A DNA stretch of 21,062 nt from a virus, in the UHGV virus genome UHGV-1684449; one strand, 5' to 3'. Within the stretch, counting starts at the first letter, position 1, and every line of letters begins with the position of its first letter. A program made the translations under genes and the position numbers. Of this stretch, positions 1 to 4,380 are shown piece after piece. The notes beneath the pieces were generated by a model. That model was not told the origin of the DNA and searched no databases. It was given only the letters and a program-made list of their open reading frames with translations.

Positions 1-144
1 ATTTAACATATTTTTGAGCACTTTTCTTTCACCCAATGGGTGAAAGCTGAATTTCGAAGGAATGCATATTTATCAAGGCTTTGATTATGCTTTTTGAAGT
101 ACTGACGTAGAATCTAGGAGTGAAATAACTCCCCTTAAAAGTTC

Positions 145-170
145 AGGCGTCCAGTTGGACGCCTTTTTTT
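145..170 (+). terminator. Rho-independent terminator-like hairpin
   Basis: Inverted repeat AGGCGTCC / GGACGCCT (145-152 / 157-164) with a 4-nt loop, followed by TTTTTT (165-170). Confidence 0.6.
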
Positions 171-220
171 ATCGCAATTATCTTATTAAGAAAACAATTT
201 GTTTAAAAGGATAAGAAAAC

Positions 221-646
221 ATGACAGCTATTAAGAAACTCTACGATGCCGCAAACGTGGCTCTGGATGTTATTGATGATGAAGTAGCAAAAGGCTTTCC
301 TGAACCTGATTGGGCGCATCAGCTACGAAACGCTATCGCAGAAATGACCCCATCAGATCCAACCCCCGACGAGACAGACTGGCAGCGATTCATCCGTATG
401 TACGCTCAGGAAATAGGTCCAACGCCAACGGCAGAGCAGGCAATGCTGCTGAAATACTTCAAAGAGGCGGGAGAGGATTTACCAATTGATGACTCAGCAT
501 ATTGGTTCCACTGCGCATGGCGTAAGTATGACGTGATATTCACACAAGGCATGGGAAGCAAAGATATGGTTGTGTGGCATCTACTCCATATAGACACAGC
601 CGTTGACAGAGTTATTGAACAGTTTTTCCCTAACCAAGAAGATTGA
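221..646 (+). CDS. Hypothetical protein (140 aa)
   Basis: ATG-initiated ORF from the six-frame track; preceded by the leader AAAAGGATAAGAAAACATG. No recognisable motifs. Confidence 0.55.
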   Translation: MTAIKKLYDAANVALDVIDDEVAKGFPEPDWAHQLRNAIAEMTPSDPTPDETDWQRFIRMYAQEIGPTPTAEQAMLLKYFKEAGEDLPIDDSAYWFHCAWRKYDVIFTQGMGSKDMVVWHLLHIDTAVDRVIEQFFPNQED

Positions 647-701
647 TCGCCTATTCATAACTAACAAAATAAGTAAACACTAACCACAAAAGGAAAAACA
701 C

Positions 702-977
702 ATGAGAGTTTTAGTTCGAATCGTTACCAGCACTGTCTATGACGTGTTTCCGCTTTTTATGGTCAAAGTCGATGGCCTTAACGATGAAGAAACTGACGCG
801 CTGATCCAGCGTACTCTTGTTGAATATACAGGTCATGACGCTGATTCAGTGATGGTTGATGATGATGGTGTTTGTTGGCATAACGGCAACTGTTGGTACG
901 TAGAAGAGACTCAACAAATCAGTAATGAAGATGCTGAACATCTTGAGCGTATTTTAAGCATCAGCACTTTTGAGTGA
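702..977 (+). CDS. Hypothetical protein (91 aa)
   Basis: ORF preceded by the conserved leader AAAAGGAAAAACACATG (688-704), with an AAGGA ribosome-binding site. No recognisable motifs. Confidence 0.55.
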   Translation: MRVLVRIVTSTVYDVFPLFMVKVDGLNDEETDALIQRTLVEYTGHDADSVMVDDDGVCWHNGNCWYVEETQQISNEDAEHLERILSISTFE

Positions 978-995
978 GTTTACAGTAAAGTTTAT

Positions 996-1015
996 ATAAG
1001 TTAGTATCTACCTAT
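996..1015. promoter_or_regulatory. Copy of the recurring 8-4-8 palindromic motif (ATAAGTTA-GTAT-CTACCTAT)
   Basis: Matches the ATAGGTAA-N4-TTACCTAT pattern seen at four other intergenic sites. Lies directly upstream of the small hydrophobic ORF. Confidence 0.35.
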
Positions 1016-1016
1016 C

Positions 1017-1196
1017 ATGAAGATTTTTATTGAATACTTGTTACTCATCGTTTCAATAGCTTTTGTCATCGACTGCATTTTCACTGGTGTCATTCGTAAA
1101 GTCTTTTCCCCGGTGCACGACGTAGTCATAAACGCTTTGGCTATCGTGCTCGTATTTAATTCAGCATTTGATGTAATCAAAGAGGTGGCAGCATGA
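1017..1196 (+). CDS. Small hydrophobic protein (59 aa), probably membrane-embedded
   Basis: Hand-translated ORF absent from the track (below its size cut-off): MKIFIEYLLLIVSIAFVIDCIFTGVIRKVFSPVHDVVINALAIVLVFNSAFDVIKEVAA. It has two hydrophobic segments. Its TGA stop overlaps the ATG of the next gene (ATGA at 1193-1196). No clear Shine-Dalgarno sequence upstream. Confidence 0.35.
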   Translation: MKIFIEYLLLIVSIAFVIDCIFTGVIRKVFSPVHDVVINALAIVLVFNSAFDVIKEVAA

Positions 1197-1528
1197 AGGC
1201 CATCCCATTCGCGCTGTTGTTCCTTTCTTCGATCGTTGTGGCCGACACCACTGTTTATCAGTGTGAAATGTCTGTAGCCGACGTTAAGAATGGCGCTCTT
1301 ACCGACGTCATAAAAGCACCATATGGAGCGATGGTCGTAGACAGCGGCGACCAGTTCTATGTTGTGCGTGACGATCGAGTATTGTCATCCCCATATCTCA
1401 CAAACCGTAATGGCAAATTAACCGGCGTCGGAGAAGACCACTTCGTATACAACAAATACAAGGGCTTCTATGGCGTTCACGCTTCTCAGCAAAGCTACCT
1501 TTTCGATGACTGCAAGGAGGTTGGATAA
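1193..1528 (+). CDS. Secreted or periplasmic small protein with N-terminal signal peptide (111 aa)
   Basis: N-terminus MKAIPFALLFLSSIVVA-DTT looks like a Sec signal peptide with an AxA-like cleavage site. Two cysteines in the mature part. GAGGTGG ribosome-binding site upstream. Confidence 0.6.
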   Translation: MKAIPFALLFLSSIVVADTTVYQCEMSVADVKNGALTDVIKAPYGAMVVDSGDQFYVVRDDRVLSSPYLTNRNGKLTGVGEDHFVYNKYKGFYGVHASQQSYLFDDCKEVG

Positions 1529-1740
1529 TGGCATTAACACTGGCAGGTCTGGAAATCGAGAAAACAAGCGGATACTGGCGTGCTAAGGGTTTCAAGCAGC
1601 CTGGCATTCTTGAGCGTCTGGAACGTGAAGATGGGTATATCGTCCACCAGCGGCGTGAATGGCGTATGTACGATCCAGAAACAGGAAAACTGACTACAAA
1701 AGCCGGAACACTTTGGGGTCTGTTGAAGAAAATACACTAA
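1528..1740 (+). CDS. Hypothetical protein (70 aa)
   Basis: ATG overlaps the upstream stop (TAATG). Strong AAGGAGG ribosome-binding site at 1514-1520. Confidence 0.5.
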   Translation: MALTLAGLEIEKTSGYWRAKGFKQPGILERLEREDGYIVHQRREWRMYDPETGKLTTKAGTLWGLLKKIH

Positions 1741-1787
1741 ATGCAAACTGACTGCGGCTCGTTCCGCAGTCATATTTCATAGTCGTC

Positions 1788-2320
1788 ACCGCTGACAGCA
1801 TACACAATCAATTACCGCTGATAGCATATCGAGAGTTTATCTCACCGCTCACAGCATACTTTACTCGATTTTTTACCGCTGACAGCATACTTAAGACATT
1901 GCATGAATAATGTGTACCGGTATGGGTATAACCAGAACAAAATTACCGCTGGCAGCATACGAAGGTCTGACATATACCATTAATTACCGCTGATAGCATA
2001 TCCAAACAAAAATTCCTCAATAAAACACCGCTGACAGCATACGTTCTATCAGGGAGTAGCAGGCAATAAATGCCTTTCACTACAAGCAATCAGCGCAATA
2101 GCAATAGAATGTTAGTGAGCGCAAACCTATATGGAATGCACTCTTCGAGGTTAGTAACCACTGGGGAGGTATGACAGAGCATTGAGTGGTGATAGATGAT
2201 TTACCGCTCACAGCATACGTTCATCTCACTATACCGCTGGTAGCATATCTTTAACCGTTCACAGCATACTTTTCAGAAAAATAGCCGCTGATAGCATACA
2301 TTTCACCGCTGACAGCATAT
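1788..2320 (+). repeat. Iteron array, 12 copies of a 16-bp direct repeat (consensus ACCGCTGACAGCATAC), incA-like
   Basis: Copies at 1788-1803, 1814-1829, 1844-1859, 1875-1890, 1945-1960, 1986-2001, 2027-2042, 2203-2218, 2233-2248, 2254-2269, 2284-2299 and 2305-2320, all in the same orientation. Variants include ACCGCTGATAGCATAT and ACCGCTCACAGCATAC. Start-to-start spacings are mostly 21, 30-31 or 41 bp. The last copy abuts the stop codon of the initiator gene. Confidence 0.85.
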
Positions 2321-3414
2321 CAAAGCAGTTTGAGACTATTGGAAAGGATCTCAATCATCTTGATATTTTCAGGCGTCAAATTCTGCGAAAGTTCGGTTAT
2401 CTTGTTGATAATGTTCTGTTTGGCATCAATTTCCCCAGCTTTCTCATCTGGTTTTTTGGGTTCGATGTCTTCAGGTTTTGGCGGTGCGACTTTGAGTTTT
2501 GGATTGCGGCTGTGAATCTGGATATAGATCGACCGCCCACGCTTAATCTCGCTGTATTCGAGATAGCCCAAATCTTGGAGAGCTTTTAAGCCGTTACGTA
2601 TAGTCTGATTCTGCGAGCTGACATTCCTGCTACTCAAATTGAGTCGCGCACGCAATCGAGCAAGCGATACCGGCGCAGGCTTGGTTGGAAGACTTTCGAT
2701 GAAGGTGTACAGAGCCTGTGCTGTTTCTTTGCGTGGTAGCTTATTGATAACCTTTAACTGCAAAAGAACCTTATGGTCAAAGCGATATAGTTCGGCCAGC
2801 TTCGGTTCTGCATAGAACACCACCGTATCTTTCTGCTCGTTGTAGTCCACGCTATTGATGAGGTGCACCATCAGAAGCGAGATCTTGTTAGAGCCGTCGA
2901 CGTTCTTTTCTTCATACGTTCTCTGGAAAGACAGAGTTGTACGCATGATCTTCAAAAGACTGTTTGTAAGCCGGTCGCGGAGTGTTTTGCGGATCTGTGA
3001 CGATGGATAGCCACAAAACTTCGCAAATTTCGTGATGCTTAACTCGACACGACCGTTAGGTTCGCCGTATTCTGCCAGCGAACGCACAACGCCCACCCAC
3101 GTTTTGAAATCATGATCCATGTCGAGACGAGGACCGGTTATCTTGATATCGGAATAGCCTTCAGAACGGGCTACTTCGAGCTGGACAAGCTCCTTTGAAG
3201 CATCGATCTCATTTGGCTTGTTACGTTTACTGTATTTTGTTCCCTTAAGCGTGGGGACGAACAACCCCAGTCGCATCAACGCAATTGGTTGGACTGTATT
3301 GTTGCTATTAGGGACAAGTTCCCCTGTGTACAATTCAAGGGAACCTTCTTCAAAGTTGTCGATGTTATCTTCTACTTCTTTGTTATTTTTACCTTTTTTA
3401 TTTTTTGTGGACAT
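2320..3414 (-). CDS. repA: Plasmid-type replication initiator, RepA-like (P1 RepA / Rep_3-like), 364 aa
   Basis: Minus-strand ORF flanked on both sides by iterons. Segments NSNNTVQPIALMRLGLFVP, DIKITGPRLDMDHDFKTW, ALYTFIESLP and IHSRNPKLK match my recollection of P1 RepA-family initiators. Start chosen at the internal ATG (3412-3414, MSTKNKKG...) because the track's longer 404-aa ORF runs through the upstream iterons. Confidence 0.75.
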   Translation of the reverse strand: MSTKNKKGKNNKEVEDNIDNFEEGSLELYTGELVPNSNNTVQPIALMRLGLFVPTLKGTKYSKRNKPNEIDASKELVQLEVARSEGYSDIKITGPRLDMDHDFKTWVGVVRSLAEYGEPNGRVELSITKFAKFCGYPSSQIRKTLRDRLTNSLLKIMRTTLSFQRTYEEKNVDGSNKISLLMVHLINSVDYNEQKDTVVFYAEPKLAELYRFDHKVLLQLKVINKLPRKETAQALYTFIESLPTKPAPVSLARLRARLNLSSRNVSSQNQTIRNGLKALQDLGYLEYSEIKRGRSIYIQIHSRNPKLKVAPPKPEDIEPKKPDEKAGEIDAKQNIINKITELSQNLTPENIKMIEILSNSLKLL

Positions 3415-3434
3415 GTGGACACCTTTGTCATTCA

Positions 3435-3536
3435 ACCGCTGACAGCATACTTGATTTGCCGCTGACAGAATACCAAAAACAGTTGGCAGCATACGGTGAA
3501 CCGCTGACAGACTATCAATTACCGCTGACAGCATAC
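3435..3536 (+). repeat. Upstream iteron array, 5 copies of the same 16-bp repeat, origin/incC-like
   Basis: Copies at 3435-3450 (ACCGCTGACAGCATAC), 3458-3473 (GCCGCTGACAGAATAC), 3479-3494 (ACAGTTGGCAGCATAC), 3500-3515 (ACCGCTGACAGACTAT) and 3521-3536. Spacing is 23, 21, 21, 21 bp, about two helical turns. They sit directly upstream of the initiator start codon. Confidence 0.8.
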
Positions 3537-3576
3537 ATGAACATGACTTCAGACCAGTCGTGGCGCGGCTTACAGC

Positions 3577-3649
3577 GATCGGGGATCTTATTTGATCTAT
3601 ATAAGGATCTATCTATGGATCTCTTTATTAGGATCTATCCTGTGGATAT
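3577..3649. promoter_or_regulatory. Origin-like region: GATC cluster in AT-rich DNA plus a DnaA-box-like site
   Basis: Six GATC sites at 3577, 3584, 3594, 3606, 3618 and 3632 within about 60 bp, inside repeated GGATCTAT units. GATCTCTTTATTAG resembles the E. coli oriC 13-mer GATCTCTTATTAG. TGTGGATAT at 3641-3649 matches the DnaA box consensus TGTGGATAA at 8 of 9 positions. Confidence 0.6.
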
Positions 3650-3735
3650 GTGAATAATTAAAACAGGCATTTACTACCTTCGGCGCACCTGGTGGGTTAT
3701 CGTTGCCTCGGCTAACAATCACAGAAAAATGACAT

Positions 3736-4380
3736 ATGGATCTAAAACGCACGCGCTGGGTTCGTCGTCTTGAAGACGGCTCCTACACTATCGAATCAAA
3801 TTCCAACCTGAATAAGCAGAAGTTGCTTTGTGACATCTGCGGTATAGCGGCGAAGTGCCCGATCTACGAAACCAGAATTAAACTTGATAAGGCTGGTGTG
3901 AATTTTCATTTAAACAGTTGCATCAGGTACGTTCCATTACTCGCATTTCGTAAACCGATCATCGGATTGGATGCTCCCTACTTCAACACACTCCGTTCAG
4001 GTGTGACGTGGCGAGATCGTTTATCACCAGACAAGCTGATTTGCCTCGTATCCGCAGACACAGGGAAAATCATCCGTTTTGGGAAAGTAGACAAGGTTTA
4101 CTCAGGCCCAGTAGACGAAATGTTGCGGAAACACAGCCGGTTTAATCATCTCTGTATGGGTGGTGAGAAAATCGAGAAGGTAGAAGAAGTGATCCGCAAA
4201 TCCTACGGACACTTCCTGAACAAAGATAGCCTGCTCACCGCAATCTACATCAGACATGTAAAACGTGAGTTCGACCTCGAATACCACAGTGAAGAAGAGC
4301 TTAACCTTGTTGACCCACGTCCAAAAGCTGGCGTCATAAGCATAAACGCAGCGCGTAAAAAGCCCACTGACGCGCTGTAA
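3736..4380 (+). CDS. Hypothetical protein (214 aa)
   Basis: ORF transcribed away from the initiator gene. Contains a CDICG (CxxC) motif. No family recognised, and the ribosome-binding site is weak. Confidence 0.5.
   Translation: MDLKRTRWVRRLEDGSYTIESNSNLNKQKLLCDICGIAAKCPIYETRIKLDKAGVNFHLNSCIRYVPLLAFRKPIIGLDAPYFNTLRSGVTWRDRLSPDKLICLVSADTGKIIRFGKVDKVYSGPVDEMLRKHSRFNHLCMGGEKIEKVEEVIRKSYGHFLNKDSLLTAIYIRHVKREFDLEYHSEEELNLVDPRPKAGVISINAARKKPTDAL

Follow-up and report, generated by a model that had tools for sequence, protein, structure and literature searches.

A conserved trio of small overlapping genes beside the replicon of an SSU5-type phage-plasmid: predicted envelope proteins and a Cra homologue

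The window analyzed here is the whole 21,062-nucleotide stretch of the virus genome UHGV-1684449, and this report concerns three small genes at positions 1017–1740, designated A, B, and C, which lie beside an array of iterons. Window bases 119–4000 share 99.5% nucleotide identity with ~110-kb non-mobilizable plasmids of Escherichia coli and are 99% identical to the Escherichia phages PhiR41_1 and CMS-2020a, 95% identical to Cyrano (the phage-plasmid pLF82 of the adherent-invasive E. coli (AIEC) strain LF82), and 76% identical to the Salmonella phage SSU5. On the basis of these identities, the window was assigned to the SSU5-type phage-plasmids, the group that also includes pHCM2 of Salmonella Typhi and pMT1 of Yersinia pestis. 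The features of the trio and its promoter region are as follows:

979–1007, plus strand: sigma-70-like promoter TTTACA-17 nt-TAGTAT from a promoter scan; 9 nt lie between the end of the -10 element and the ATG of A
1000–1014, plus strand: operator-like site GTTAGTATCTACCTA, overlapping the -10 element and the predicted transcription start
1017–1196, plus strand: gene A, 59 amino acids (aa), family phrog_2535, coordinates of the open reading frame (ORF) checked
1193–1528, plus strand: gene B, 111-aa precursor, family phrog_2077
1193–1243, plus strand: signal peptide of B, residues 1–17, predicted cleavage between VVA and D
1528–1740, plus strand: gene C, 70 aa, family phrog_804

The stop codon of A overlaps the start of B in the sequence ATGA (1193–1196), and the stop of B overlaps the start of C in TAATG (1526–1530); the ORFs, their coordinates, and both overlaps, as described in an earlier note on this DNA, were exact on re-check. 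The start of B is preceded by its own Shine-Dalgarno (SD) sequence, GAGGTG, located within A, and the start of C by a strong one, AAGGAGG, located within B. Only 48 nt separate the end of the trio from the neighboring iteron array, which the same note had pointed out and which consists of 12 units at 1788–2319. The 59-aa ORF, which that note marked as not in its track, is absent from the RefSeq annotation of the best-matching plasmid. RefSeq often leaves this gene out; it is annotated in the phages PhiR41_1, Cyrano, and SSU5 and in pMT1.

SSU5, pMT1, and two Klebsiella phages carry the trio together with both overlaps, as do Enterobacter and Serratia elements, and its spread covers Escherichia, Salmonella, Klebsiella, Enterobacter, Yersinia, and Serratia. 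The A-B-C order beside the iterons is invariant in SSU5-type elements, the position adjoining repA is conserved in all of them, and no SSU5-type lineage examined has lost either overlap. Two distant trios were also identified, in which B is only ~27–33% identical: one (L010) comprises a 56-aa ORF with transmembrane segments, a 112-aa protein, and a 71-aa protein, and the other (L015) comprises ORFs of 45, 115, and 70 aa. In comparisons among the E. coli, Salmonella-type, and Klebsiella-type lineages, synonymous sites were saturated (proportion of synonymous differences, pS, 0.61–0.88), and non-synonymous differences (pN) amounted to 0.16–0.37 for A (against a pS of 0.70–0.88), 0.17–0.27 for B, and 0.03–0.10 for C. 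The low non-synonymous differences despite saturated synonymous sites indicate that all three genes, the 59-aa A included, are under purifying selection; C evolves far more slowly than A and B, with dN/dS of 0.03–0.08. Since the same ORFs and overlaps recur in lineages with saturated synonymous sites, and also in the distant relatives, the sequence comparisons place the three ORFs beyond chance.

Among the PLSDB plasmid records, A was found in 767, B in 811 (780 of them non-mobilizable), and C in 1485. The surplus of C consists of matches below 60% identity; those sampled were E. coli and Salmonella plasmids of ~90–110 kb. These plasmids probably belong to the P1 type and encode Cra, as they show the same 43.5% identity as the cra gene of phage P1.

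In 6 of 10 independent contexts, B is overlapped or directly adjoined by a small hydrophobic ORF, which supports a partnership between A and B. Two of these six are not of the SSU5 type, and in both the hydrophobic ORF lies downstream of B. In Pantoea phage PdC23, the B homologue is the second gene of an operon divergent from cro and is followed by an overlapping 46-aa hydrophobic ORF; in a short contig (L018), the hydrophobic ORF likewise overlaps the B homologue. A 76-aa protein encoded upstream of the PdC23 B homologue was suspected to be Cra-like from its C-terminal ...LLKKVH, and was rejected by hhalign (probability 1%).

A natural deletion bears on the necessity of the pair. In pHCM2 (L011, 3001–3306; protein P0016), an in-frame deletion fuses A, after its first helix and loop, to B at residue 47. 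The inactivation of both genes by this deletion, together with the wide occurrence of pHCM2, indicates at the sequence level that A and B are dispensable for plasmid maintenance. The junction lies at a shared ...GAM... microhomology, and the product is a 101-aa chimera that lacks the signal peptide and first cysteine of B and is present on ~1000 contigs. The Typhi lineage keeps its Cra-like gene, though the A-B pair is inactivated.

Protein A has a grand average of hydropathy of 1.56 and two hydrophobic segments, at approximately residues 3–26 and 31–50, in line with the two-helix hydrophobic protein of the earlier note. It matches phrog_2535 with E = 3.7e-31 and is strongly predicted to be a two-helix protein of the inner membrane. 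The connecting loop is always the most positively charged part of A, which by the positive-inside rule suggests a cytoplasmic loop with both termini outside (N-out/C-out). The loop motif R/K-K-x-[FL]-x-P-[VIM]-x-G is the most conserved feature of the alignment and is retained in the divergent versions of A from L010, L015, and a further element, L027; within the helices, D19 and N39 are invariant among SSU5-type sequences. The start of A has no SD sequence in the SSU5 group. Since, in addition, the -10 element ends so close to the ATG, the mRNA of A would be leaderless or carry a leader of at most 4 nt. The homologues of A in L010 and L015 have a canonical SD sequence (GAGG) upstream, which gives independent support for the translation of A.

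The N-terminus of protein B, MK-AIPFALLFLSSIVV-A followed after the cleavage site by DTT, has the n/h/c layout of a Sec-type signal peptide; the VVA/D site after residue 17 fits the -3/-1 rule, and there is no lipobox. Thus, the export signal proposed earlier is upheld as a sequence prediction. The signal peptide is the sole hydrophobic segment of B, and homologues with as little as 25% identity all retain its pattern. Mature B would be an acidic protein of 94 aa, and cysteines occur in the precursor only at residues 24 and 107. When 1.84 billion representative proteins were searched exhaustively with a profile, only 27 relatives were returned at E ≤ 1e-3, so by sequence the family is very narrow; two of these (P0095 and P0099) were discarded as spurious, being long repetitive proteins. 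Every full-length relative carries a signal peptide, and C24, F55, S66, P67, and C107 are invariant across them.

The AlphaFold2 model of B is all-beta with ten strands (mean predicted local distance difference test score, pLDDT, 83.5; only one of five models was confident), and the signal peptide is disordered. Mature B is therefore predicted to be a small closed beta-barrel, in which C24 and C107, located in the first and last strands, are expected to be neighbors. The position of these invariant cysteines argues for a C24–C107 disulfide and hence for the periplasm, and a disulfide-bonded periplasmic B is strongly predicted from the model. A Foldseek search against viral models retrieved uncharacterized proteins of other phages, some of them annotated as lipoproteins, with TM-scores of ~0.7 and no sequence link to B. 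Searches of the PDB with the B and C family profiles gave nothing below E ~0.1.

The predicted barrel brings to mind the periplasmic PliC/MliC/ACP lysozyme inhibitors. One alternative is that B acts in the periplasm against enzymes that degrade peptidoglycan, inhibiting for example host lysozyme, wall effectors of type VI secretion systems, or phage lysins; the operon would then be a conversion factor aiding the survival of the carrier inside phagocytes. The similarity is at a level common to small barrels in general, B has an invariant residue set of its own, and neither a Pfam match of the MliC/PliC kind at E ≤ 1 nor a PDB sequence match of the family profile was obtained; we regard this alternative as unlikely. 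A second structural parallel is Cap15, an effector of the cyclic oligonucleotide-based antiphage signaling system (CBASS), in which a minimal beta-barrel and two transmembrane helices are joined in one protein; in the trio, A provides the helices and B the barrel, as two distinct polypeptides. Unlike the cytosolic barrel of Cap15, B carries a cleavable signal peptide and a conserved cysteine pair and is thus predicted to be periplasmic. Neither a CD-NTase nor another CBASS gene was found near the trio, and PADLOC gave no CBASS match.

A remote B homologue was observed on a chromosomal island (L021, 1152–3211; GCA_041954745.1), downstream of a gene for a Tlde1-domain protein, an L,D-transpeptidase-type effector. 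The island is flanked by an integrase gene, and several other small exported or membrane proteins are encoded around the homologue; the cluster may represent immunity genes against a wall effector.

Protein C is basic (pI 9.6) and hydrophilic, has no hydrophobic segment, and is strongly predicted to be cytoplasmic. Its residues 1–70 align with positions 3–72 of phrog_804 (E = 6.5e-34), the family to which P1 Cra also belongs (E = 1e-34), and a tblastn comparison of C with P1 cra gave 43.5% identity over 62 residues (E = 1e-4). By these matches, C is a homologue of P1 Cra. The two proteins are similar in length (70 and 73 aa), and both are encoded on enterobacterial phage-plasmids. The gene context is different: P1 cra stands alone between lox and cre and contains the cre promoters, whereas C is the third gene of an operon for envelope proteins, and is followed by a hairpin, the 12 iterons, and the 3' end of repA, with no recombinase gene adjoining. 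Since the function of the P1 ORF was never established, the match names the family of C without explaining its function. The structure model of C was poor, and the fold search returned no informative match.

Each protein of the trio thus has its own PHROG family of unknown function. In the PHROGs search at E ≤ 0.1, A, B, and C matched only families of this kind, C with an additional marginal hit to phrog_8116 (E = 0.064). The Pfam search at E ≤ 1 gave no match for any of them; the sole NCBIfam match, for B, had E = 0.08 against a 518-bit cut-off, and the sole PADLOC match, of A to typeIV_Cas5, had E = 0.0087, both of which were considered noise. No homology to the characterized exclusion proteins (T4 Imm and Sp, P1 Sim, HK97 gp15, P22 SieA and SieB, T5 Llp, and Cor) was detected in the PHROGs, Pfam, and NCBIfam searches, and a literature search by protein accession found nothing. 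Hence, of the earlier note's proposals, the structural part stood, while the suggested role in superinfection exclusion, immunity, or toxicity remained a mere possibility without a match in these four databases.

The expression of the trio could be followed in Cyrano, in which the corresponding genes CYRAN_60, CYRAN_61, and CYRAN_62 encode proteins 98.6–100% identical to those of the window. We used the strand-specific RNA-seq values of PMC9928086 (S1 Table), the data of which originate from Prudent et al. (2021). The values for CYRAN_60/61/62, given as log2 of FPKM + 5 (FPKM, fragments per kilobase per million mapped reads), are as follows:

Overnight lysogeny broth (LB): 2.3 / 2.5 / 3.7
Bacteria-only control, 1 h: 4.3 / 4.7 / 5.4
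Bacteria-only control, 6 h: 3.3 / 3.1 / 6.3
THP1 macrophages, 1 h: 7.0 / 6.2 / 7.2
THP1 macrophages, 6 h: 8.6 / 8.4 / 8.9

In overnight LB, CYRAN_60 and CYRAN_61 were at or near the detection floor of 2.32. When macrophages at 6 h were compared with the 6 h control, CYRAN_61 ranked first and CYRAN_60 second among 123 Cyrano genes, with increases of 5.4 and 5.3 log2 units (~40-fold), respectively, against a median of 0.9. The upstream genes CYRAN_58 and CYRAN_59 stayed at 2.5–5.6 and repA at 7.0–8.3 across the conditions. Thus, the trio is a separate transcription unit, and copy number does not explain its rise. The authors of the source article sought genes highly expressed in LB and made no comment on the trio.

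The five-condition profile of the trio correlated (r = 0.96–0.99) with those of CYRAN_44 (integrase), CYRAN_98 (LexA-like S24 peptidase), and CYRAN_46. Canonical LexA boxes (CTGT-N8-ACAG) lie upstream of CYRAN_44 and CYRAN_98, and CYRAN_46 adjoins the putative repressor gene (CYRAN_45). The boxes, TACTGTATGTGTATACAGTA and CTGTTTACTTATACAG, are located at ~39,250–39,300 of L013 (upstream of CYRAN_98) and ~41,040–41,075 of L012 (upstream of CYRAN_44). Macrophages are known to expose LF82 to genotoxic conditions that induce the SOS response, and the LexA-box genes are presumably SOS-regulated; an SOS dependence of the trio is inferred. The promoter of the trio itself has no LexA box. A PhoP box suspected in this promoter (AGTTTA-N6-AGTTTA) was rejected, as its half-sites are wrongly spaced and the second of them lacks conservation in SSU5, pMT1, and Klebsiella.

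The promoter region is under strong conservation: the block TTTACAG...ATATAAGTTAGTAT(C/T)TACCTAT(C/T)ATG is shared by E. coli, SSU5, pMT1, Enterobacter, Klebsiella, and pHCM2 elements, even where the upstream gene differs. The site GTTAGTATCTACCTA within it is a copy of a dispersed palindrome of ~22 bp with the approximate consensus GATAGGTAAGT..ACTTACCTATC. Scanning Cyrano with a weight matrix derived from nine sites gave 40 hits (~25 sites, both strands counted; located in L012, L013, and L022) compared with 1.7 ± 1.1 in Markov shuffles. Nearly all sites are intergenic and immediately upstream of operons, one of them 30 nt upstream of the putative repressor gene. Six copies are present in the window, at positions 670, 1000, 4503, 9188, 18739, and 20952. 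First genes downstream of the palindrome had a median macrophage induction of 1.75 log2 units versus 0.76 elsewhere (Mann-Whitney p = 7e-4), a comparison that is partly circular, as some of the matrix sites came from upstream of induced genes; the trio was the strongest responder among the palindrome-adjoining genes.

The palindrome probably defines an element-wide regulon, as a candidate operator or promoter element, and its simplest reading is a repressor-operator regulon of the P1 C1 kind. The C1 repressor of P1 acts on many dispersed asymmetric operators that control early operons. One short motif at ~25 operon starts, and also beside the putative repressor gene, resembles this arrangement; unlike the C1 operator, the motif here is a palindrome, and the two sequences are unrelated. 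No description of the palindrome was found in the searchable literature.

The region on the other side of the trio contains the following features:

1749–1772, no strand assigned: GC-rich hairpin with a 9-bp stem and a poor U-tract from a terminator scan, directly after the stop of C
1788–2319, plus strand: 12 iterons, ACCGCTGACAGCATA-like units from a pattern search, an incA-like array downstream of repA and outside the operon

RNAfold gave -15.6 kcal/mol for 1741–1790, and SSU5, pMT1, and Enterobacter elements have a different hairpin at the same position; it is a probable weak bidirectional terminator between the operon and the iterons. As the operon points into the array 48 nt away across this weak hairpin only, and as its place beside repA is conserved in all SSU5-type elements, the operon might act on the neighboring replicon, with read-through into the iterons and/or the Cra-type protein loosening copy-number control as the element exits the plasmid state. 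We consider such an effect very improbable. It assigns no role to the membrane and periplasmic proteins, P1 cra is far from the P1 plasmid replicon, pHCM2 replicates with A-B destroyed, and the repA transcript barely changes when the operon is induced.

The expression pattern and the predicted location of the products in the membrane, periplasm, and cytoplasm are also compatible with another explanation, namely that the operon controls or perturbs the membrane upon induction, either as an auxiliary timing device of the holin/antiholin kind or with A as an SOS-type toxin moderated by B. Such a timing device would resemble the layout of T4 T/RI/RIII, which has membrane, periplasmic, and cytoplasmic parts. 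The conserved polar residues D19 and N39 in the helices of A, which are frequent in pore-forming or oligomerizing peptides, and the expression together with LexA-box genes are in line with this explanation. However, a standard holin-endolysin-Rz/Rz1 cassette is encoded elsewhere in the element (CYRAN_22–25), the charged C-terminal tail that holins typically have is absent from A, and the Pfam, PHROGs, and NCBIfam searches linked the trio to no holin, antiholin, or type I toxin. Moreover, no Cyrano virions above background were detected in macrophages, though the trio is strongly expressed there. We consider this explanation improbable.

The silence of the trio in the resting lysogen argues against a constitutive prophage immunity or exclusion gene, and the pattern fits a function in the early lytic or stress phase better. 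We propose, with a probability of roughly 0.35, that the trio is an accessory operon in which A and B form an envelope exclusion or protection module of the early derepression phase; this function is a conjecture. In the resting plasmid-prophage, the operon is off, and under host stress, for example inside macrophages, it is switched on together with the LexA-box genes of the element. Transcription would start from a promoter that has its -10 element and start site within a copy of the palindrome that marks ~25 operon starts. A would be translated from a leaderless or nearly leaderless mRNA, and B and C from strong internal ribosome-binding sites with overlapping stop and start codons. Soon after derepression, A and B would act jointly at the inner membrane and periplasm and may block DNA entry, or wall attack by superinfecting phages or other muralytic agents, while the element develops; C would be a co-expressed cytoplasmic factor.

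An exclusion or protection role of A and B is favored for four reasons: their products are predicted to sit at the barrier that an incoming phage must cross; the genes are kept in ~800 elements and yet appear dispensable for plasmid life; they are switched on with the lytic/SOS program; and similar secreted barrels are scattered among other phages. A parallel in layout is found in T4, where Imm and Sp, an inner-membrane protein and a periplasm-facing protein, provide early superinfection exclusion. The present pair resembles them in combining a small two-helix inner-membrane protein with a small periplasmic protein, as predicted here, and in being expressed with the lytic or early program. It differs in that B is predicted to be an all-beta barrel, whereas T4 Sp is helical, in that T4 has no Cra-like third gene, and in the absence of detectable homology.

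Several observations weigh against this proposal. Temperate phages typically express their exclusion genes in the lysogen, where the trio is silent, and A, B, and C have no sequence or profile likeness to known exclusion, immunity, or defense proteins in the four databases searched. Signal-peptide cleavage, the disulfide, the topology of A, and the transcription start are predictions. The RNA-seq data cover one strain, two replicates, and short genes; the samples labeled B1 and B6 are bacteria-only controls, of which the portions of the article text at hand gave no exact definition. The palindrome could be a phage-specific promoter element rather than an operator. Finally, the evidence that A, B, and C belong together is mixed. 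B has no membrane partner in L017, where a primase gene precedes it, in L019, where it lies among tail genes, and on the integrase island (L021), and C occurs without A and B in P1; consequently, the trio may not be one machine.

These last observations lead to the alternative that unrelated accessory genes were packed together, with an A-B envelope pair and an independent Cra-type protein that have nothing but a promoter in common, and coupling that merely reflects genome compaction. The solitary B homologues and the solitary C-family genes beside lox-cre in P1-type phages agree with it, as does the much slower evolution of C. In addition, the base level of CYRAN_62 in the 6 h control (6.3) exceeded those of CYRAN_60 and CYRAN_61 (~3.2), a hint that C may be expressed partly on its own, from a further internal promoter or through the greater stability of a 3' fragment; a consensus scan inside B found no promoter. 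On the other hand, the A-B-C order and the overlaps are kept in every SSU5-type lineage examined, and even where B is only 27–33% identical, and the three transcripts rise together. We consider this alternative rather unlikely.

The opposite view, that A, B, and C constitute a single trans-envelope device, with a periplasmic barrel, a two-helix membrane adaptor that has its conserved basic loop on the cytoplasmic side, and a Cra-type cytoplasmic partner, which is induced in phagocytes through the SOS/derepression circuit of the element and alters the fate of the carrier, is in our estimation a quite improbable one. It might operate through altered envelope resistance or intracellular survival, or by coupling the state of the envelope to the plasmid-to-lytic switch at the adjacent replicon. 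If true, it would give a host-relevant function to “cryptic” elements of the pHCM2, pMT1, and pLF82 types in S. Typhi, Y. pestis, and AIEC.

The sequences themselves are not new: the genes have been deposited hundreds of times as hypothetical proteins, and their PHROG families exist. The trio falls within the known kind of small phage accessory envelope proteins and matches no characterized family. What is new is the composition of the trio and the predicted placement of its products, the link to Cra, the narrowness of the B family and its invariant pair of cysteines, a first gene that is probably leaderless, the palindrome resembling an operator, and the finding, from re-read public RNA-seq data, that the trio shows the strongest macrophage induction of the element. 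Clinical E. coli, Klebsiella, Enterobacter, S. Typhi (pHCM2), and Y. pestis (pMT1) commonly harbor SSU5-type phage-plasmids, which increasingly carry resistance genes and whose non-structural genes are mostly unannotated. Gene A is a real small membrane protein gene often missed by genome pipelines. The description given here turns hypothetical proteins into testable hypotheses on exclusion, wall protection, a regulon with its operator, and leaderless translation, and provides a starting point for understanding the Cra family of P1, which has long gone unexplained.

The wider surroundings of the trio form a core block of the SSU5 type, which runs in the window from a DUF7238 gene and a 91-aa gene through A, B, and C to the iterons and a Rep_3 repA, and which is carried by ~100–120-kb non-mobilizable enterobacterial plasmids and by phages. 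Its remaining features are:

221–646: gene upstream of the trio for a 141-aa DUF7238 protein
702–977: gene upstream of the trio for a 91-aa protein, phrog_2209
2320–3534, minus strand: repA, RepB/Rep_3, maximal ORF of 404 aa, from the annotation of related records
3435–3535: five further iterons on the other side of repA, from the pattern search

The DUF7238 and 91-aa genes are syntenic with the trio in E. coli-, Salmonella-, Yersinia-, Enterobacter-, and Serratia-type elements, and the DUF7238 gene is absent from the upstream position in the two Klebsiella phages. Neither gene is co-induced with the trio. The occurrence of iterons on both sides of repA is similar to the incA/incC arrangement of P1. 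The 404-aa repA ORF, which is the RefSeq version, passes through the five upstream iterons, and other annotations start RepA later (351–364 aa); the longer version is probably an over-extension.

Window bases 1–118 are 100% identical to the end of an insertion sequence (IS) labeled ISEc9 (ISEcp1-type) in other records. In related plasmids, the region is preceded by an SPFH/stomatin-like gene, whose final few codons are replaced here by this end. By this match, the present copy of the phage-plasmid carries an IS insertion, possibly with cargo, just upstream of the region.

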